This document shows, in pieces, positions 1 to 60,001 of a stretch of DNA of 64,000 bases. The DNA comes from a virus (Duplodnaviria; Heunggongvirae; Uroviricota; Caudoviricetes), in the IMG/VR virus record IMGVR_UViG_2681813455_000010, positions 1 to 64,000 of that record. The stretch is one strand, 5' to 3'. Positions within the stretch are counted from its first letter, which is position 1; every line of letters begins with the position of its first letter. The translations under genes and the position numbers were made by a program. The notes beneath the pieces were generated by a model that was not told where the DNA came from, searched no databases, and saw nothing but the letters and a program-made list of their open reading frames with translations.

Positions 1-2223
1 ATGGACGGCTCAGCGAATATGTCCGGTACATTTACTCAGGAAAACGGTCGTCTGACCATTCAGGGCCACCCGGTTATCCATGCTTCAACGTCTCAGAGTA
101 TTGCAAATACAGTCTCGTCTCTGGGCGACAATTCCGTTCTGACACAGCCCACCTCATTTACACAGGATGACTGGGAGAACAGGACGTTCAGCTTTGGTTC
201 GCTCGTGTTAAAAGATACAGACTTTGGTCTGGGCCGCAATGCCACACTGAACACAACCATCCAGGCAGATAACTCCAGCGTCACGCTGGGCGACAGTCGG
301 GTATTTATCGACAAAAAAGATGGCCAGGGAACAGCATTTACCCTTGAAGAAGGCACATCTGTTGCAACTAAAGATGCAGATAAAAGCGTCTTCAACGGCA
401 CCGTCAACCTGGATAATCAGTCAGTGCTGAATATCAATGAGATATTCAATGGCGGAATACAGGCGAACAACAGTACCGTGAATATCTCCTCAGACAGTGC
501 CGTTCTGGAGAACTCAACGCTGACCAGTACCGCCCTGAATCTGAACAAGGGAGCAAATGTTCTGGCCAGTCAGAGTTTTGTTTCTGACGGTCCGGTGAAT
601 ATTTCTGATGCCACCCTGAGTCTGAACAGCCGTCCTGATGAGGTATCTCACACACTTTTACCTGTATACGATTATGCCGGTTCATGGAACCTGAAGGGAG
701 ACGATGCCCGCCTGAACGTGGGGCCGTACAGTATGTTGTCAGGTAATATCAATGTTCAGGATAAAGGGACTGTCACCCTCGGAGGGGAAGGGGAACTGAG
801 TCCTGACCTGACTCTTCAGAATCAGATGTTGTACAGCCTGTTTAACGGGTACCGCAATACCTGGAGCGGGAGCCTGAATGCACCGGATGCCACCGTCAGC
901 ATGACAGACACCCAGTGGTCGATGAACGGAAACTCCACGGCAGGAAATATGAAACTTAACCGGACAATAGTCGGTTTTAACGGGGGAACATCATCGTTCA
1001 CGACACTGACAACAGATAATCTGGACGCGGTTCAGTCAGCATTTGTCATGCGTACAGACCTTAACAAGGCAGACAAACTGGTGATAAACAAGTCGGCAAC
1101 AGGTCATGACAACAGCATCTGGGTTAACTTCCTGAAAAAACCCTCTGACAAGGACACGCTTGATATTCCACTGGTCAGCGCACCTGAAGCGACAGCTGAT
1201 AATCTGTTCAGGGCATCAACACGGGTTGTGGGATTCAGTGATGTCACCCCCACCCTTAGTGTCAGAAAAGAGGACGGGAAAAAAGAGTGGGTCCTCGATG
1301 GTTACCAGGTTGCACGTAACGACGGCCAGGGTAAGGCTGCCGCCACATTCATGCACATCAGCTATAACAACTTCATCACTGAAGTTAACAACCTGAACAA
1401 ACGCATGGGCGATTTGAGGGATATTAACGGCGAAGCCGGTACGTGGGTGCGTCTGCTGAACGGTTCCGGCTCTGCTGATGGCGGTTTCACTGACCACTAT
1501 ACCCTGCTGCAGATGGGGGCTGACCGTAAGCACGAACTGGGAAGTATGGACCTGTTTACCGGCGTGATGGCCACCTACACTGACACAGATGCGTCAGCAG
1601 GCCTGTACAGCGGTAAAACAAAATCATGGGGTGGTGGTTTCTATGCCAGTGGTCTGTTCCGGTCCGGCGCTTACTTTGATTTGATTGCCAAATATATTCA
1701 CAATGAAAACAAATATGACCTGAACTTTGCCGGAGCTGGTAAACAGAACTTCCGCAGCCATTCACTGTATGCAGGTGCAGAAGTCGGATACCGTTATCAT
1801 CTGACAGATACGACGTTTGTTGAACCTCAGGCGGAACTGGTCTGGGGAAGACTGCAGGGCCAAACATTTAACTGGAACGACAGTGGAATGGATGTCTCAA
1901 TGCGTCGTAACAGCGTTAATCCTCTGGTAGGCAGAACCGGCGTTGTTTCCGGTAAAACCTTCAGTGGTAAGGACTGGAGTCTGACAGCCCGTGCCGGCCT
2001 GCATTATGAGTTCGATCTGACGGACAGTGCTGACGTTCACCTGAAGGATGCAGCGGGAGAACATCAGATTAATGGCAGAAAAGACGGTCGTATGCTTTAC
2101 GGTGTGGGGTTAAATGCCCGGTTTGGCGACAATACGCGTCTGGGGCTGGAAGTTGAACGCTCTGCATTCGGTAAATACAACACAGATGATGCGATAAACG
2201 CTAATATTCGTTATTCATTCTGA
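1..2223 (+). CDS. autotransporter (type Va) adhesin-like protein, C-terminal part; 5' end outside window
   Basis: ORF open from window start (740 codons, stop 2221-2223); Asn/Thr/Ser-rich passenger-like region then C-terminal domain ending in terminal Phe (..IRYSF) typical of outer-membrane beta-barrel translocators. Confidence 0.7.
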   Translation: MDGSANMSGTFTQENGRLTIQGHPVIHASTSQSIANTVSSLGDNSVLTQPTSFTQDDWENRTFSFGSLVLKDTDFGLGRNATLNTTIQADNSSVTLGDSRVFIDKKDGQGTAFTLEEGTSVATKDADKSVFNGTVNLDNQSVLNINEIFNGGIQANNSTVNISSDSAVLENSTLTSTALNLNKGANVLASQSFVSDGPVNISDATLSLNSRPDEVSHTLLPVYDYAGSWNLKGDDARLNVGPYSMLSGNINVQDKGTVTLGGEGELSPDLTLQNQMLYSLFNGYRNTWSGSLNAPDATVSMTDTQWSMNGNSTAGNMKLNRTIVGFNGGTSSFTTLTTDNLDAVQSAFVMRTDLNKADKLVINKSATGHDNSIWVNFLKKPSDKDTLDIPLVSAPEATADNLFRASTRVVGFSDVTPTLSVRKEDGKKEWVLDGYQVARNDGQGKAAATFMHISYNNFITEVNNLNKRMGDLRDINGEAGTWVRLLNGSGSADGGFTDHYTLLQMGADRKHELGSMDLFTGVMATYTDTDASAGLYSGKTKSWGGGFYASGLFRSGAYFDLIAKYIHNENKYDLNFAGAGKQNFRSHSLYAGAEVGYRYHLTDTTFVEPQAELVWGRLQGQTFNWNDSGMDVSMRRNSVNPLVGRTGVVSGKTFSGKDWSLTARAGLHYEFDLTDSADVHLKDAAGEHQINGRKDGRMLYGVGLNARFGDNTRLGLEVERSAFGKYNTDDAINANIRYSF

Positions 2224-2348
2224 TGCTGTGCAGCAAAGGGACTATTGCTTTGTCCCTTTGCTGCGATTATCTGATTACGGTACAGGCTGGAACTTAGATT
2301 TTCCGGCGTTCACGATACTTCATGTAACACTCAGGTTGAGTAATCTTC

Positions 2349-2873
2349 ATGAGTTTTCTTTTGCCGTGTGGTGGAATTATGAATAATATAGATTTATTAA
2401 AAACTATAACAAACTACAAAAAAATCAAAAATCCGGCATACCCGGCTCAGGAGAGTCTGTTAATACACTTATATATTAGAGTAAATGACAAAATCCAGAG
2501 TATTATAGAAAATGAATTGAGCGAGTATAGAATAAACACTTCAACATTTATGGTGTTAGTTTCATTATATATGTCTGATGATTATTGTCAGTCCCCTTCT
2601 GATATTTACAAGGAGTTACAATTCTCCAAAACAAACATCACACACATCATAGACAAATTAGAAAAAAAGAATATTGCCAAAAGAATTAATAATAAAAACG
2701 ATCGTCGAAGCAAAAGTATTTGCTTAACCCCTGACGGAGTTACACTTGCTCAAAAACTAATAAACACTCAAAATGTAATGCTAAAGAAAATCTGGAGCGG
2801 GCTATCAGATGATGAAATGAAAACATTTGAACTCGCCAACAAAAAATTATTATCAAACCTTAATGTTAATTGA
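2349..2873 (+). CDS. MarR/SlyA-like winged-helix transcriptional regulator (alternative start ATG 2379)
   Basis: 174-aa ORF, very AT-rich; wing-like motif DRRSKSICLTPDG recalled from MarR family; no search run. Confidence 0.45.
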   Translation: MSFLLPCGGIMNNIDLLKTITNYKKIKNPAYPAQESLLIHLYIRVNDKIQSIIENELSEYRINTSTFMVLVSLYMSDDYCQSPSDIYKELQFSKTNITHIIDKLEKKNIAKRINNKNDRRSKSICLTPDGVTLAQKLINTQNVMLKKIWSGLSDDEMKTFELANKKLLSNLNVN

Positions 2874-3307
2874 TGTTAAAACATACTAACAGTCATCTTC
2901 TTACAATGTATTCTTCTGGAGAGAATAACTACCAGAATATATAAAGACATTAATCACACTCTCATTTAATTACAATGAGCATAAGAGCCACCAATGTTTA
3001 TGCTGGTTAGGCTTTATATAGGAAACAATAAAAAAACGTCATTAAACAAAGCGTTTTTAATGGCGTTGTTATTTAAAAGAAAGATATCAAATATAGATTA
3101 ACCCCCATCGAATAAAGATGTTGTCTAATCATACCTGAAGGTATTTATCACTAGAATTTTATTTGTATAAATGGACATATACCATTGGAAGATTTAGAAA
3201 AGCATGTCCAGGAGTTTAAGGACAAATCTCATACTGATTATCGGAAGCTTTTATCATTATATGATTACCAAGCATACAATGTATAATTATATACACTATT
3301 ATTGTGA

Positions 3308-3646
3308 TTATAATTTGTTACTGTGCCACTCAAGGGCAATATCTTTGAAGGTGTTGTTTAACTGCGTTTCCCGGGCAATCTTTTCCTCTCGCTTCACTTC
3401 CATCAGATCGATTCCCCCAGAGATACCTCTTTTAGCTTCTTCAAGTTTTGCAGGAGCATCAGCTAAGGTGACCTCAGGATACACACCTAGTGCTAACAGC
3501 TTCTCTTTACCAGCTACACGATACTTGAGACGCCAATATTCTCCTCCACCAGGTTTTACCAGGAGGTACAGACCACCACCATCAGCCAACTTGTAAGCCT
3601 TCTCTTTTGGCTTGGCAGTGTCTATTTGACGGGCATTGAGTTTCAC
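3308..3646 (-). pseudogene. N-terminal remnant (~112 aa) of a P4-type tyrosine integrase (arm-binding domain), truncated
   Basis: Translation ..AKPKEKAYKLADGGGLYLLVKPGGGEYWRLKYR.. matches the conserved N-terminal arm-binding domain pattern of P4-family integrases; ORF ends after 112 codons with no catalytic domain; adjacent to tRNA-derived repeat at 3810. Confidence 0.6.
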
Positions 3647-3809
3647 TTGGGGGTATCTCCACTAAACTGAACAGCAAATCCCCTCAATTGCTTGTAGAGT
3701 TTGGGGTACTTAAATAGACGTCAAAAGACTAAAAGGGGCATTAATATACTGATTATAAGAGGTTTTTAAATACTTGAGTAGACTTGGGGAGACGTTAGAA
3801 TGGTGCCGA

Positions 3810-3829
3810 TAATAGGAGTAAAACACTCG
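3810..3829. repeat. 20-bp direct repeat ATGGTGCCGATAATAGGAGT (reverse complement of tRNA-Thr 3' end incl. CCA); putative att site
   Basis: Identical 20-mer recurs at 16377-16396; flanks integrase-containing element. Confidence 0.65.
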
Positions 3830-3905
3830 ATTAATCTCGTGTTAATGCCATCACCTACGACCATTACTAATTGATTGAATCTTATAGAAAAAATCATCAT
3901 TTTCT

Positions 3906-5240
3906 ATGCGTTACAATCAATTTTCACATTACAAACGCTCCGACACTTTAGCCGGGGAGTTTATGAGATACAAGCCCAATCAATACATAATCTGTGATTC
4001 TTACGGTAACTACTATTTAAGGATCACGCTGCCTGTGTATATGCAGCCCTTTTTTGAAGGAAAAAGGACGTTTGTCAGGAGTCTGCACACAAGTAATCTT
4101 CGTGTTGCACGTAGAAAGCGTGATCAGATTGCAGATGAATACCATTGCTTACGGGAGAGTGTCGCCCCTGTAAACAGCACAATAGAGAACACGCTGGAAC
4201 TGTTACGCAGTAAGGCTAAATACGCCAAAACAGCTACCAGAATGCAAGATACAGCGTCTTCGTGTCCGTCATTGCTTAAAATTCTTGAAATCTACCTGAC
4301 AATTAACAGCACGAAGAAGAAGCCAGCCACTTTAGCTAAGGCAAGAAAAGCGGTAGAGATGTTTCTCTCCTACCGTAAAAAGCCTGATATTGCATTGCAA
4401 GATGTGAGCCGCACCACTGTTACAGGCTGGATTGAACACATGCAAAAAACCCTTTCACAACAATCAATTGCAAATTATATCAGCCCAATGGCCCAGCTAT
4501 GGGAGTTAGCTTCATCACGTTACCACGATGCGCCAGAAAGGGCGCTCTCCCCCTGGCGAGGGCATAGGCTTGATGTGGCACAAAGTAGAGAGAGCTACGA
4601 GGCATTTTCTAACAAAGAGCTATTGCAGGTGTTGCAAGTATTTTCCGGTAATTCAGCAGAAAACAAAGAAATGATGGCTTTGTGTCTTATCGGTGCTTAT
4701 ACAGGTATGCGGATCAATGAGATAGCAAGTCTCACAATAGACGATGTGAAAGAGATCGAAGGTGTGCTGTGTTTTGAAATCACACAGGGAAAAACGAAAG
4801 CTGCGGCGCGTGTTGTGCCTGTACATAGCCTTATCACTCCGTTGGTGTTGTCGCTGCGTGAAAAGCCTCATAATGGCTTTTTGTTCTATCACGCCAGCAT
4901 TACAGAGCGTGCTGATGGTAAACGTTCCACGTGGCACACGCAGAGATTTACAAGAGCTAAACGAAAGGCTTTAGGGGAAAAGGGAACAGAAAGGAAAGTG
5001 TTTCATTCTCTGAGACACGGAGTAGCACAGCTTCTTGATCGAAATCAAATTCCAGAAGACAGGATCGCCCTTCTCCTGGGCCATACACGCGGCAATACAG
5101 AGACATTCCGCACATATAGCAAGAATGCAGCTTCTCCAGTAGAGCTTAAAAACTATATTGAGCTTCTACGCTACCCTGAAATAGAGAAAGGCTTATCAAT
5201 CAATAAAAAATCAAATTTAAGGCGTAAAACAACGCCATAG
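3906..5240 (+). CDS. int: tyrosine-type site-specific integrase
   Basis: 444-aa ORF with ATG start; C-terminal catalytic pattern ..HSLRHGVAQLL..LLGHTRGNTETFRTYSK.. (R..H..R/H..Y) typical of tyrosine recombinases. Confidence 0.75.
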   Translation: MRYNQFSHYKRSDTLAGEFMRYKPNQYIICDSYGNYYLRITLPVYMQPFFEGKRTFVRSLHTSNLRVARRKRDQIADEYHCLRESVAPVNSTIENTLELLRSKAKYAKTATRMQDTASSCPSLLKILEIYLTINSTKKKPATLAKARKAVEMFLSYRKKPDIALQDVSRTTVTGWIEHMQKTLSQQSIANYISPMAQLWELASSRYHDAPERALSPWRGHRLDVAQSRESYEAFSNKELLQVLQVFSGNSAENKEMMALCLIGAYTGMRINEIASLTIDDVKEIEGVLCFEITQGKTKAAARVVPVHSLITPLVLSLREKPHNGFLFYHASITERADGKRSTWHTQRFTRAKRKALGEKGTERKVFHSLRHGVAQLLDRNQIPEDRIALLLGHTRGNTETFRTYSKNAASPVELKNYIELLRYPEIEKGLSINKKSNLRRKTTP

Positions 5241-5320
5241 ACGCAATAAAGAGGCTTCAACATAATTGGTAGCCTCTTTTATAATTACATCGTTACAGAG
5301 CGTTTTAGAGGCGTTTACGG

Positions 5321-6034
5321 CTATTCCTGTTTAAAGGCAGGCGTAATAGTGTCTTCACCTTCACTACTTGATTTTTCAGTGTTAACACGTTTTTTCATAT
5401 TAGCCCCGATGTTCTTAGATGGCTGTGTTTTGAGAGCTACAGTGTTTACAGTGCCATACGACACTAATCTGATTTGCTCAAATTCCAAATCAAATACCAG
5501 AGATTCGCTTGCTTCTTCTGTGTATTCGATGCCTGTTAAAACAACGTTCTCAAAAGTTTTATTTTCTGTAACAAGAAGAAAAGGCTGTCTACTGTCCATA
5601 ATCTGATTTAGATAATCAATCGCTAATGATCTTCTGTTCCCGTTCACCCCTGCACTCTTTAACAAGCCAGGATCGCTTTTAATCGGTGTTTCAGTGATCC
5701 TTCCTTTAAGAGAAAACTTATTGTTTTTAATTTGAACGTGATCAGACACAGTAGCACCATTTTCTACGGGGTAGCTTGTGACATCTGCCGAACGTCTCAC
5801 GTTCACATCGTCTACACTGTCAAAGGCCAGTGCCATATAATTTTCATAAACGTCATTGCCAGAAGATGCCAAGCCACTGGTAACAATAGCAAATCCGTTC
5901 TCTCCTTTTGTTTTATTAGCTTTGCTATTTTCGTTTTTTGTAGAGTTTATATCTTGTTCTGCTTTGTAAACAGCCTGAACGTGTTGTTCTGGAGTATTTG
6001 CTGCACGTATGGTTAAAATCCCGGCGGTCGCCAT
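5321..6034 (-). CDS. hypothetical protein (237 aa)
   Basis: ATG start with AAGGAAA Shine-Dalgarno; co-directional with neighbouring gene block. Confidence 0.45.
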   Translation of the reverse strand: MATAGILTIRAANTPEQHVQAVYKAEQDINSTKNENSKANKTKGENGFAIVTSGLASSGNDVYENYMALAFDSVDDVNVRRSADVTSYPVENGATVSDHVQIKNNKFSLKGRITETPIKSDPGLLKSAGVNGNRRSLAIDYLNQIMDSRQPFLLVTENKTFENVVLTGIEYTEEASESLVFDLEFEQIRLVSYGTVNTVALKTQPSKNIGANMKKRVNTEKSSSEGEDTITPAFKQE

Positions 6035-56205: not shown

Positions 56206-56747
56206 ATTGCCCCCAGCATGGTGGTGACCATCGCCATCAATGGACCAGCCAGGTCCGGGTCCACACGAAACATCGACACAATGCCTTCACTCATCTCCTT
56301 CAGTTTCTGGTGGCGTGGTGCGTTGAGAATGACAGCCTGTTTTGCCTCACTGAGTTCCTTTTCCATTTCAGCCAACCGAGTCATGAAGCTATCCTGCTCA
56401 ACCAGGTAACCGCGATATTCCAGCGGTAGTACCGCCAGAATTGCCGGGGTCAGTTCACGCACGTTATTTCGGTATTTTTCAGAATCGAATTTGTTATCGA
56501 GGAAGCGGAACAGCTTCTGGCGTGCACGGCTGACATCATCAGGGAAATCGATGGTGCCGCCGCCCTGCTCCCGATACTCATTCACAATGAGTGCGGCAAC
56601 AACATCCTGATTATCTGCAGCCGACCAGGCGCGGACGGCATCACGGATTTTTTCGTGGCCTGGCACCTGTTTTATTTGAGAACGATTTATCACCGCAGTC
56701 GGGCTAAATCCGCTAGTCTGTTGGTATGTAAGTGGTTGCATAGTCAT
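56202..56747 (-). CDS. hypothetical regulator in the cII position (181 aa); possibly phage 186 CII-like
   Basis: Position between cro and O; family assignment is a guess from memory. Confidence 0.4.
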   Translation of the reverse strand: MTMQPLTYQQTSGFSPTAVINRSQIKQVPGHEKIRDAVRAWSAADNQDVVAALIVNEYREQGGGTIDFPDDVSRARQKLFRFLDNKFDSEKYRNNVRELTPAILAVLPLEYRGYLVEQDSFMTRLAEMEKELSEAKQAVILNAPRHQKLKEMSEGIVSMFRVDPDLAGPLMAMVTTMLGAI

Positions 56748-56771
56748 TGCCTTATCAGTTAACGCCGCAGT

Positions 56772-56999
56772 TTAGGCGGCAGAATTACTCGCGTTAAACA
56801 ATGGTGCGAGGTCGGGACGAATATCTGCTGGTTTAATCTTTCCACCAGTGGCTGAGACAATTTTCATTACATAGCGGGCATCAATTCCGCCACCGTGTAG
56901 CCAACGCCAAACTGTGGGTTGGGCTACACCGCATAGATCTGCCAGTCGTTTTTGACTACCTGTAATACTGATTGCGAGTTGAATGGTTTGATTTGTCAT
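56772..56999 (-). CDS. cro: Cro-like HTH repressor
   Basis: ..QKRLADLCGVAQPTVWRWLHGG.. HTH; divergent from cI; start set at ATG 56999. Confidence 0.6.
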   Translation of the reverse strand: MTNQTIQLAISITGSQKRLADLCGVAQPTVWRWLHGGGIDARYVMKIVSATGGKIKPADIRPDLAPLFNASNSAA

Positions 57000-57109
57000 T
57001 ATCAATTCCTATTGGTATTGCAATGAATGAATAATAGCAATGCGTATTAATCCAAGCAATAGCAAAACGTGTTTTGACCATCAATACGCAAGCGTATAAA
57101 TTAAAACTT
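57000..57109. promoter_or_regulatory. OR-like operator/promoter region between cro and cI
   Basis: Repeated TAGCAAT/AGCAATAGC half-site motifs also found at the OL-like cluster (59094-59140). Confidence 0.45.
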
Positions 57110-57802
57110 ATGAAAAAAGAAACTCTTGCTGATCGCTTAAACCTAGCGATGGAACAATCTGGAATGTCTCAAGGCGCTCTTGCAAAGGCGTCTGGCGTAG
57201 CTCAACCCACAATCTGGAGACTGACAAGCGGCAACGCGCGCGGCTCAACAAAAATTGTTGAAATAGCTAATGCATTGGGTGTTCGAACAGAATGGCTCTC
57301 ATCAGGCATAGGCCCGATGAGAAATGACGGTCAACAATCAGGGAAGCCTGCTGTCAGCCATTCCAAATACTTCAAAATTGACGTTCTTGATATAGAAGTC
57401 AGTGCCGGGCCAGGTGTAATCAACCGTGAGTTTGTAGAAGTTCTACGCTCGGTTGAGTACTCGTTTGACGATGCTCGTCACATGTTCGATGGCAGGAAGG
57501 CGGAAAATATCCGCATCATTAACGTGCGAGGTGACAGCATGTCAGGGACGATCGAACCAGGTGACCTGCTGTTCGTTGATATCACTGTTAAATCTTTCGA
57601 CGGTGATGGCATCTATGCGTTTCTATATGACGACACCGCCCATGTAAAGCGCCTGCAAATGATGAAGGATAAACTGCTGGTTATCTCTGATAACAAAAGC
57701 TACTCACCGTGGGACCCGATCGAGAAAGACGAGATGAACCGGGTATTCATCTTCGGTAAGGTTATTGGGAGCATGCCGCAGACGTATAGGAAACATGGTT
57801 AA
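57110..57802 (+). CDS. cI: cI-type repressor (HTH plus S24 LexA-like autopeptidase)
   Basis: N-terminal HTH (QGALAKASGVAQPTIWRL), C-terminal ..GDSMSGTIEPGDLLFVD.. and K-containing S24 pattern; ATG 57110 has no SD (leaderless as lambda cI); ORF track extends to 57074 via TTG. Confidence 0.85.
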   Translation: MKKETLADRLNLAMEQSGMSQGALAKASGVAQPTIWRLTSGNARGSTKIVEIANALGVRTEWLSSGIGPMRNDGQQSGKPAVSHSKYFKIDVLDIEVSAGPGVINREFVEVLRSVEYSFDDARHMFDGRKAENIRIINVRGDSMSGTIEPGDLLFVDITVKSFDGDGIYAFLYDDTAHVKRLQMMKDKLLVISDNKSYSPWDPIEKDEMNRVFIFGKVIGSMPQTYRKHG

Positions 57803-58090
57803 TCCCATGTCTAAATAATAGACAATATTAATGATGGCGATAGTCAAAGCTCTCGCCATGACACTTTATATTGTATTGAATTATGCCTCTCTACCACTAT
57901 ATATAGCAAACAACTTTCCAGTACCTCTCCCCAGAATAATATGCTGTCCAATGAGGATAAACAGCAATAAATCCTATCGTTTTATAAGTGACGGATGTAC
58001 ATAAAGTTATTAATATGTACTAACAGTTACCTTTCAGGTAAAATGCAAACATTACACAACTGGTTATTTATACAGTTAAGGGGGCATAAC

Positions 58091-58561
58091 ATGGCTTACT
58101 CAGCTGCAGCGGTTGCTAATGCCTTCATTGAAAAGGCTTTAAAGGGTGAGTTAAAGAATCTGACTCCAATGAAGCTCCAGAAGCTTCTTTTTTATACTCA
58201 ATCATGGCATTTAAAGTTACGCGACAACACACCGCTTTTTGATGATCTTTTCGCCAGATGGAAATTCGGGCCTGTTATTCCACCGCTTTATCATATGTTG
58301 AAGAAGTATGGCGCAAACGAAATCACTGAAAAGATTAGCGTCATCTTAGAGTGTGATGGCGAATTAAAAAGAATCACCCCTACAATTCAAAAAGATGATG
58401 AAGAAGCTCAAGCTCTTATCAATAAAATCATCGAAGTATATGGGAAATTTTCAGGTACTGAACTGTCTAACTTAACACATGCGCCTGGTACAGCATGGAG
58501 CAAGGGAAGTGCAGATGGTGGCCCCATTTCTCATGAGGATATGGCGAAGCATATTCACTAA
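58091..58561 (+). CDS. Panacea/DUF4065-like (PanA/SocA antitoxin-type) domain protein, 156 aa
   Basis: ATG 58091 with AAGGGGG SD; ..LTPMKLQKLLFYTQSWHL..FARWKFGPVIPPLYH.. matches recalled DUF4065 core pattern; stop overlaps next start (TAATG). Confidence 0.5.
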   Translation: MAYSAAAVANAFIEKALKGELKNLTPMKLQKLLFYTQSWHLKLRDNTPLFDDLFARWKFGPVIPPLYHMLKKYGANEITEKISVILECDGELKRITPTIQKDDEEAQALINKIIEVYGKFSGTELSNLTHAPGTAWSKGSADGGPISHEDMAKHIH

Positions 58562-58944
58562 TGAAGTCGTTTGATAGCATATCTATACCCAGTGGCACAA
58601 ATGTAGGCTCATCGAAAGTATCAAGTGCCGAAGATGAGCCGCCAATTACAGAAAGAATATCCAGAGGTGACGACCTCAATGCTCAAAAAGCGGCAGATGC
58701 CAAGTCAAACAGGCAACTTCGTGAGATCTTGGCAGAAAAAGCGTACCGTGTCGTAAAAAAATCACTTTACGGATGGGCTTTGTTTCTTTTCTTTCAAGGC
58801 TGGTTTTCTATCATTGGGATAAAGGTTTTTTCCGATAAGGTAGTTTTGGCTGTAACAACAGCTGTTACTCTTAATGTATTCGCTGCTTTTCTTGGTGTTA
58901 TCAGGGGATTATTCCCAGCTGCCAGTAGAAAAGATAAAAGTTAA
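58561..58944 (+). CDS. small membrane protein (127 aa), candidate toxin/effector partner
   Basis: Hydrophilic N-terminal half; C-terminal hydrophobic helices WALFLFFQGWFSIIGIKVF and LAVTTAVTLNVFAAFLGVI; translationally coupled to upstream gene. Confidence 0.5.
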   Translation: MKSFDSISIPSGTNVGSSKVSSAEDEPPITERISRGDDLNAQKAADAKSNRQLREILAEKAYRVVKKSLYGWALFLFFQGWFSIIGIKVFSDKVVLAVTTAVTLNVFAAFLGVIRGLFPAASRKDKS

Positions 58945-58971
58945 CCCGGCCACCGTGCCGGGTTTTCTTTT
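58945..58971 (+). terminator. rho-independent terminator after the two-gene cassette
   Basis: cccggccaccgtgccggg hairpin followed by ttttctttt. Confidence 0.55.
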
Positions 58972-59093
58972 GTCCCCTCCCCTCATCACACACCACTCAA
59001 AAAACCACCACACCTCACTTCAGTTATCGCTATGCGATGCAAGTCACAAAATTAATTCTTTTTGCTATCAAACATTTAATATCAAAACACATC

Positions 59094-59140
59094 TAGCAAT
59101 AGCAATAAGTATTGATATCATCAATAGCAATAGCTATTAT
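59094..59140. promoter_or_regulatory. OL-like operator cluster
   Basis: tagcaatagcaata...caatagcaatagctatt shares half-site motif with OR region. Confidence 0.4.
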
Positions 59141-59417
59141 CACCATGTCGCAACAACACAACGATACGGCAATCACCTGATTCACCGTTGCGATGACCGC
59201 TTAGATCCGCAGCTTGAATTTCAGCAGGCTCCGGGGAGTGCGAGGGGTGAAGCGGACGCGTGAACGTCGGTGTGACCAGCTGAAATCAACTCAACACTTC
59301 ATACCTCAGTCGCTTCAACGAGGCGGCTTAGTTATGACAACCGGCGGCCATCCACCGCCTGAATACGCGCAGAAGTCTTTATATGTTCAGCAGCCCAGCT
59401 TACGGGCAGGAGTTTTT

Positions 59418-59624
59418 ATGGTTCATCAACATTACGGAACGCAGACCGTTAATCGCGGTGCGGTCATGCCAGGAATGCTGGTCAAACACAAAGATGGTAC
59501 CTGGACTGCATCAGCTAATTTACGCGGACGGCTTTATCTGCATCGCGGCATCGAGCGCACTTATACCCGTGACTTGCTCGTGGAAGTTTTTCTCGACGTA
59601 CGCGGCAACGGCCTGAATCACTAA
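59418..59624 (+). CDS. hypothetical early-left protein (68 aa)
   Basis: ATG with AGGAG SD inside longer ORF 59214-59624; no recognised family. Confidence 0.3.
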
Positions 59625-59699
59625 CCCCCTTTCCTGTTTTCCTAATCAGCCTGGCATTTCGCGGGCGATATTTCCACAGCCATTTTCAGGAGTTCAGCC

Positions 59700-59996
59700 A
59701 TGAACGCTTATTACATTCAGGATCGTCTTGAGGCTCAGAGCTGGACGCGTCACTACCAGCAGATCGCCCGTGAAGAGAAAGAGGCAGAACTGGCAGACGA
59801 CATGGAAAAAGGCCTGCCCCAGCACCTGTTTGAATCGCTATGCATCGATCATTTGCAACGCCACGGGGTCAGCAAAAAAGCCATTACCCGTGCGTTCGAT
59901 GACGATGTTGAGTTTCAGGGGCGCATGGCAGAACACATCCGGTACATGGTTGAAACCATTGCTCACCACCAGGTTGATATTGATTCAGAGGTATAA
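59700..59996 (+). CDS. gam: Gam (RecBCD inhibitor), short GamS-type form
   Basis: [56 protein letters not shown].. matches lambda Gam. Confidence 0.9.
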
Positions 59997-60001
59997 AACG
60001 G

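Follow-up and report, generated by a model that had tools for sequence, protein, structure and literature searches.

A putative PanA-PanT toxin-antitoxin cassette between cI and the OL/PL-like region of an Escherichia coli lambdoid prophage

We studied a two-gene cassette, here called panA (gene 1) and panT (gene 2), that lies between the cI-type repressor gene and the OL/PL-like region in a 64,000-nucleotide (nt) stretch of viral DNA (IMG/VR record IMGVR_UViG_2681813455_000010, positions 1 to 64,000; hereafter the window). Around 57-61 kb the window spans the immunity and early-left region of a lambdoid prophage of E. coli, with 100% identity to E. coli SF-468; in that strain the prophage adjoins tRNA-Thr and proA, and RefSeq likewise annotates both coding sequences of the cassette. 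All coordinates below refer to the window unless another record is named.

Results and discussion

Organization of the cI-OL/PL interval

The cI gene, whose product carries a helix-turn-helix (HTH) and an S24 peptidase domain, is divergent from a cro-like gene and forms the upstream edge of the slot in which the cassette resides. The main features of the interval are, in order:

57110-57802, plus strand: cI-type repressor (PF00717, E=1.3e-18, and HTH_3; RefSeq WP_001295669.1), upstream edge of the slot.
57803-58090, plus strand: cI-panA spacer, 288 nt, AT-rich (34% GC), with no convincing terminator.
58078-58084, plus strand: Shine-Dalgarno sequence AAGGGGG of panA.
58091-58561, plus strand: panA, 156 amino acids (aa), Panacea/DUF4065.
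58559-58563, plus strand: TAATG stop/start overlap of panA and panT, 1 nt.
58561-58944, plus strand: panT, 127-aa protein with two predicted transmembrane (TM) segments.
58943-58974, plus strand: intrinsic terminator with an 8-bp G+C-rich stem, a 6-nt loop and a T-tract, ending the cassette just before OL/PL.
59094-59146, plus strand: OL-like operators and PL-like promoter, downstream edge of the slot.

The two co-directional genes, their TAATG overlap and their own hairpin terminator had been noted in a preliminary description of the window, and all of these coordinates were confirmed. The terminator hairpin (58943-58964), which is followed by the T-tract, folded at -19.8 kcal/mol (z=-5.0), and none of 200 shuffled sequences folded as well; it is the positional analogue of lambda t_imm. 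Beyond it, OL-like repeats (59098-59146) matched the OR region (57033-57081), and a PL-like promoter (59112-59140, TTGATA-17-TATTAT) precedes kil, gam, bet and exo. On the lambda map the interval between cI and OL, on the same strand as cI, is the place of rexAB, which is expressed in the lysogen. With cI upstream and the OL/PL-like elements downstream, the earlier placement of the cassette at the rexAB-equivalent position was confirmed. A search of positions 56500-60000 against Rfam returned no RNA family.

No N-like antiterminator gene was annotated between the PL-like promoter and kil (59418-59624). A TTG-started open reading frame (ORF) in this segment (59214-59624) is in frame with kil, and its arginine-rich start (RGVRGVKRTRERR) resembles the arginine-rich motif of N-type proteins.

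The first gene encodes a standalone Panacea protein

The product of gene 1 matched the Pfam profile PF13274 with E=5.1e-21 and 76.1 bits, against a gathering cutoff of 25.7, over profile positions 1-112 of 113, which bears out the initial proposal that it is a Panacea (DUF4065)-like protein. It also matched phrog_1281 (E=9e-42), and RefSeq labels it "Panacea domain-containing protein". At 156 aa it is a standalone Panacea, with no N-terminal accessory domain and no room for a DNA-binding domain. The GPV motif in beta2, found to be functionally important in PanA of V. harveyi (PMC8832971), is present at residues 60-62 (nt 58268-58276) within KFGPVIP (residues 58-64) and is invariant in three lineages. 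Against the NCBIfam model SocA_antitoxin (NF047745) the protein scored 92.8 bits, below the 190-bit equivalog cutoff, and it is therefore best regarded as a PanA and not as a SocA orthologue. A sequence search of the PDB with PanA found no relative. As to its start, the Shine-Dalgarno sequence is kept at the same place, as AAGGAGG or AAGGGGG, in 8/9 homologues, which favours position 58091 over an upstream ATG at 57995.

The second gene encodes a small protein with two predicted transmembrane helices

PanT (127 aa, isoelectric point 9.8) matched phrog_33656 (E=3e-42) and had no match in Pfam, NCBIfam or PADLOC. Its residues 1-45 are acidic (net charge -2) and disordered, with block-mean predicted local distance difference test (pLDDT) values of 47-56 over residues 1-40. 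A basic helix (residues ~46-70, net charge +4) leads to two hydrophobic segments, TM1 at ~71-91 (nt 58771-58833) and TM2 at ~93-119 (nt 58837-58917), with Kyte-Doolittle values of up to 2.08 in a 19-residue window, and the protein ends in a short basic tail. An AlphaFold2 (AF2) model placed helices at residues 38-84 and 92-117 in a helical hairpin. Hydropathy and model thus agree with the previous view of gene 2 as a small membrane protein with a hydrophilic N-terminus and two C-terminal hydrophobic helices.

By a full HMMER profile search, 310 clusters formed at 50% identity were assigned to the family at E<=1e-3, 122 of them at E<=1e-10. All family hits share one layout: a variable N-terminus, the motif xRxLRxxYAxKAY, TM1, and the block SDxVLIAITTGxTVNVLAAFLGVIRGLFP. 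TM2 of PanT, TLNVFAAFLGVIRGLFP, is nearly invariant among the Enterobacterales homologues, with the N-terminus free to vary. Within the disordered N-terminus we also observed a motif, [EDQ][DE]xPP (EDEPP in PanT, residues 24-28, nt 58630-58644), in 31/136 family members as compared with 0.8 expected by shuffling; its spacing from the conserved TM2 block that follows is roughly constant, at ~87 residues. We speculate that it might be a docking motif for PanA.

Linkage of panA and panT and relationship to toxin cluster T3

A PanA homologue was found directly upstream of the gene-2 homologue in 37/37 fetched loci. These comprised 19 loci from separate species-representative genomes (Enterobacterales, Pseudomonas and Vreelandella) together with prophage ends of E. 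coli, Serratia and Enterobacter, an island adjoining ssrA and an integrative conjugative element (ICE) of E. coli, and Shiga toxin 2 (Stx2)-converting phages. Identity of PanA/PanT to two other E. coli lineages was 79%/64% and 76%/55-57%, and the constant linkage indicates that panA and panT travel and diverge together. The 1-nt overlap (spacing -1) recurs in the homologue represented by locus L003, and spacings in other lineages range from -4 to +15.

Kurata et al. (2022) surveyed the gene neighbourhoods of DUF4065 proteins and defined 88 toxin clusters (PMC8832971). Panacea pairs are taken as toxin-antitoxin (TA)-like when they are bicistronic and lie <=100 nt apart; here the two genes overlap by 1 nt. 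In Dataset S1 of that study cluster T3 includes, in antitoxin-toxin (A|T) order, pairs of Tatumella morbirosei LMG 23360 (gap of 8 nt), T. saanichensis NML 06-3099 (15 nt) and Phaseolibacter flectens ATCC 12775 (-4 nt) (PMC8832971). A scan of species-representative genomes with an Enterobacterales alignment of gene 2 matched these same three genomes (tblastn E=2e-31, 5e-30 and 2e-30, respectively), with 45-47% identity to gene 2 in the best aligned segment, and the PanA-PanT gaps that we measured in them, 8, 15 and -4 nt, are the Dataset S1 values. From the same genomes and equal gaps it follows that gene 2 belongs to T3. Its layout also agrees with the description of T3-type toxins, i.e., a charged N-terminal part followed by C-terminal TM helices. 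Cluster T6, which has Enterobacterales entries with overlaps of -1/-4, was considered as another home for gene 2 and was rejected, as T6 is the one with the MazF-like RNase of P. moraviensis.

One T3 member has been characterized experimentally: the PanT of Shiga toxin-producing E. coli (STEC) O31 (WP_000019185.1; PanA WP_000287252.1) is toxic and is neutralised by its PanA (PMC8832971). It causes membrane depolarisation and SYTOX uptake, pointing to pore formation, and blocks transcription, translation and replication indiscriminately (PMC8832971). Domain identity of gene 1, T3 homology of gene 2 and the 37/37 linkage together support the initial idea that the gene pair resembles a TA module. 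The suggestion that the pairing was undescribed did not hold, given the homology to a cluster with a validated member in E. coli. Blastn searches of complete E. coli genomes with two queries recovered five lineages of the panA-panT pair (PanAT), none of them with WP_000019185.1, and a tblastn search against plasmids returned nothing.

The region upstream of panA

Two elements of the cI-panA spacer were considered as possible regulatory sites:

57997-58020, no strand assigned: 7-bp inverted repeat GTACATA-N10-TATGTAC, judged to be chance or lineage-specific.
58016-58044, plus strand: putative cassette promoter with -35-like TGTACT (58016-58021), a 17-nt spacer and -10-like TAAAAT (58039-58044).

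About 75 nt upstream of panA are conserved across unrelated contexts, past cI in the window and past DinI or int elsewhere. The pattern T[GT][TG]ACT-17-[TC]AnnnT occurs upstream of panA in 7/9 homologous cassettes, with a near-consensus TTGACT in Phaseolibacter, and we infer from these sequences that positions 58016-58044 are the cassette's own weak sigma-70 promoter. Read-through from PRM would also be possible, as for rexAB, since the spacer lacks a terminator. A hairpin located 32 nt past the cI stop (57834-57859, ATGGCGA-N12-TCGCCAT, 7-bp stem) has no U-tract and folds at -12.8 kcal/mol (z=-1.8), and may serve in RNA stability. This hairpin is kept, along with the spacer, in the copy found in pCE-O153H30-A (see below).

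The inverted repeat had been proposed, at approximately 58001-58024, as an autoregulatory operator, an interpretation that our results do not support. Its true position is 57997-58020, and among random 288-nt sequences matched in composition 43% contained a perfect 7-bp inverted repeat. No other lineage shares the left arm, and the right arm, which is conserved, is the -35-like element; folded as RNA, the repeat reached only z=-0.9. Ernits et al. 2023 (PMC10440598), moreover, argue that autoregulation of transcription by Panacea is improbable. With an unconserved left arm, an occurrence expected by chance and a PanA devoid of a DNA-binding domain, the operator was rejected.

In three other contexts, at a prophage end or in the ssrA island, PanAT lies directly downstream of a DinI-family gene (locus L003, positions 5028-5270; L015, 4025-4264; L020, 1985-2224), and an ACTGAT block ahead of the promoter-like element is conserved. 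A LexA box, which might imply an SOS link, was also considered in the conserved upstream block: the Tatumella sequence CTG-N9-CAG comes close to one but departs from the canonical N10 spacing, and nothing comparable is present in the window.

The cI-OL slot in other phages and the distribution of PanAT

Other two-gene cargos occupy the cI-OL slot next to an identical cI (WP_001295669.1) or the same OL region. In E. coli SE11 they encode proteins of 87 and 147 aa (locus L010, positions 2706-3425) and in phage PhiR68_2 proteins of 341 and 149 aa (locus L011, positions 2048-3503). No significant Pfam domains were found in these SE11 and PhiR68_2 cargos, which are candidate lysogen-expressed accessory or defence genes. 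The cassette type of the window was present in 11/5,426 complete E. coli genomes, as compared with 1,233 for the flanking OL segment. It is linked, too, with a cI that differs in its DNA-binding domain: overall identity is 82%, and divergence is greatest in the N-terminal HTH region.

A second PanAT lineage was found in the same slot. In the Stx2 phage Lyz12581Vzw (NC_049917; locus L008, positions 1931-5381) and ~20 relatives, the cI-PL interval contains a BsuBI-type restriction-modification (R-M) system followed by a diverged PanAT, with 76%/55-57% identity (PanA/PanT) to the window. The occurrence of other cargos in phages with identical cI, together with two diverged PanAT lineages in the slot, argues that this is an exchangeable accessory or defence site. 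The repeated capture of PanAT in a lysogen-expressed cargo slot, also beside R-M, hints that it may protect the host, through abortive infection or exclusion.

Further PanAT copies were located at prophage ends, in the ssrA-adjacent island and in an ICE. The R-M genes of the Stx2 phages, a BsuBI-type methyltransferase and an endonuclease, have their own hairpin terminator ahead of PanAT. The ICE of E. coli C5 (locus L019, positions 2501-3661) carries a PanA of 159 aa and a PanT of 153 aa that hhalign places in the same family (probability 100%); behind them lies a third ORF of 73 aa with no Pfam match. A circular 44.8-kb replicon annotated as a plasmid, pCE-O153H30-A (NZ_CP172337.1), contains the cassette within a nearly identical copy of the prophage early region. 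An Avs2 defence gene lies on this replicon as well, and its cI differs in the HTH domain; the replicon may be an excised or circularised phage genome or a phage-plasmid.

Proposed mechanism

We conclude, with a probability of about 0.75, that the cassette is a type II PanA-PanT toxin-antitoxin module and a moron of an E. coli lambdoid prophage, lodged in the slot between cI and OL/PL. Domain identity, architecture, T3 homology, linkage and slot mobility come from this analysis, and toxicity, depolarisation and neutralisation from the literature on relatives; expression in the lysogen and the biological role are what we infer.

Transcription in the lysogen would probably begin at the weak sigma-70 promoter upstream of panA, possibly with read-through from PRM and cI, and would stop at the terminator before OL/PL. 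PanA would be made first, and the TAATG overlap suggests translational coupling of the two genes. By analogy with the characterized relatives, free PanT would insert in the inner membrane and dissipate the membrane potential, probably by forming pores. PanA, in turn, is expected to bind PanT directly, most likely at the disordered N-terminal region and the charged helix preceding TM1. Neutralisation by PanA was found to be independent of ClpXP and Lon, and PanA proteins and their cognate toxins associate in complexes, i.e., type II behaviour (Kurata et al. 2022, PMC8832971). For PanT_D11 of Bartonella (see below), the standalone Panacea is predicted to contact the disordered N-terminus and a short pre-TM helix, and mutagenesis supports this (Ernits et al. 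2023, PMC10440598). The same elements are present in gene 2.

Several observations weigh against these assignments. Homology to the STEC O31 PanT is indirect, through three other T3 members, and T3 itself is a jackhmmer-based cluster. In the study of Kurata et al. 2022 (PMC8832971), eight predicted PanTs showed no toxicity in E. coli. The AF2 model of PanT is of only moderate confidence (pLDDT 68), the -35-like TGTACT is weak, and a simple consensus promoter scan missed positions 58016-58044. No PADLOC model matched PanA or PanT, and in the searchable literature we found no report of anti-phage activity for any PanA-T3 pair.

Biological role

If the cassette is a TA module, it could act in abortive infection or superinfection exclusion: the complex would stay latent until an infecting phage, or a product sensed by Panacea, frees PanT, and the membrane potential would then collapse in a RexAB-like manner. 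This reading is a specific version of the role and not a rival to the TA identity, and we hold it to be possible, at somewhat below even odds. The cassette occupies the lysogen-expressed place of lambda rexAB, the cargo of this slot varies among phages with the same cI, and in Stx2 phages it holds an R-M system together with a homologous PanAT. Other PanAT copies lie at prophage ends, a location typical of morons. Panacea has been hypothesised to be a sensor (Ernits et al. 2023, PMC10440598), and RosmerTA, a phage system that also depolarises the membrane, does defend. On the other hand, the PADLOC search was negative, and location alone is no proof of function. A narrower version, which is a little less probable again and which we propose only tentatively, is that the slot PanAT is a lysogen-expressed exclusion system in which Panacea senses a specific phage cue and frees a pore-forming PanT, as a non-homologous replacement of RexAB. 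If true, this would provide the first natural trigger and biological role for the Panacea 'sensor', in a tractable lambdoid/E. coli setting.

The same TA identity would also be compatible with pure addiction or stabilisation, in which the module, with no part in defence against phages, does no more than punish the loss or decay of the prophage's immunity region through post-segregational killing. Type II TA systems on mobile elements classically act in this way, Kurata et al. 2022 (PMC8832971) discuss addiction for pairs near transposons and prophages, and the presence of the cassette on an ICE and on the circular 44.8-kb phage-like replicon annotated as a plasmid would fit it. We nevertheless consider it unlikely, as integrated prophages are seldom lost by segregation, neutralisation by PanA is independent of Lon and ClpXP, and repeated capture in lysogen-expressed, defence-type slots beside R-M suggests a benefit to the host. 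A different proposal would deny toxicity altogether: gene 2 would be a benign membrane protein, e.g., one that excludes phages by blocking injection or a holin-like accessory of lysis, and gene 1 would encode a partner of Panacea fold that serves some other function. Some predicted membrane PanTs, e.g., that of C. difficile, are indeed non-toxic in E. coli, and PanT gave a weak match to the holin family phrog_881 (E=0.039, over 18 residues). That match is not significant, however; the strict PanA-PanT synteny in 37/37 loci lies outside lysis cassettes, and the cluster to which gene 2 is homologous has an E. coli member shown by experiment to be toxic and pore-forming. We regard a non-toxic gene 2 as very improbable.

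Comparison with known systems

The PanA-PanT pairing is not new: the cassette is an uncharacterised member of a TA family that was described in 2022, with experimental validation that extended to an E. coli toxin of the same cluster, and, the class having already been published, the cassette itself is no discovery. With the STEC O31 pair it shares a standalone Panacea upstream (A|T, 'noNTD'), a toxin with a charged N-terminal part and C-terminal TM helices, and the host species. In contrast to the cassette, with its 1-nt overlap and its place in a prophage immunity region, the STEC O31 genes are 22 nt apart and carry the flag 'NotPhage'; the flag and the gap indicate that the STEC O31 pair is a different lineage.

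The architecture of gene 2 also matches that of the toxin in the PanT_D11/T12-PanA pair of Bartonella choladocola (apis) (PMC8832971, PMC10440598). PanT_D11 is a small membrane-depolarising, pore-forming toxin that is directly neutralised by a standalone Panacea (PMC10440598). It belongs to a separate FlaGs cluster, T12, which is only 'potentially homologous' to T3; its likeness to gene 2 is one of architecture. SocA-SocB of Caulobacter, a type VI TA system, shares with the cassette a Panacea-domain antitoxin. The SocB toxin acts on the DNA polymerase clamp, with SocA serving as a ClpXP adaptor, whereas the cassette toxin is an unrelated membrane protein without similarity to SocB.

What deserves note is the context: two diverged PanAT lineages in the lysogen-expressed cI-OL/PL slot of different lambdoid phages, one of them beside R-M. 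This location is interesting, if not unprecedented in kind, and the cassette offers a tractable system for what Panacea antitoxins sense, an open question according to Ernits et al. 2023 (PMC10440598). Lambda RexA-RexB has in common with the cassette the slot between cI and OL/PL, the strand of cI, a terminator before OL, two genes and a membrane-acting effector. No Rex match in PADLOC or Pfam was found for either cassette protein, so that, as regards homology, position alone is in common. RexB is a membrane protein with four TM segments, and its activation collapses the membrane potential. The logic of the two systems is opposite: RexA, as sensor/activator, activates RexB, whereas PanA inhibits PanT.

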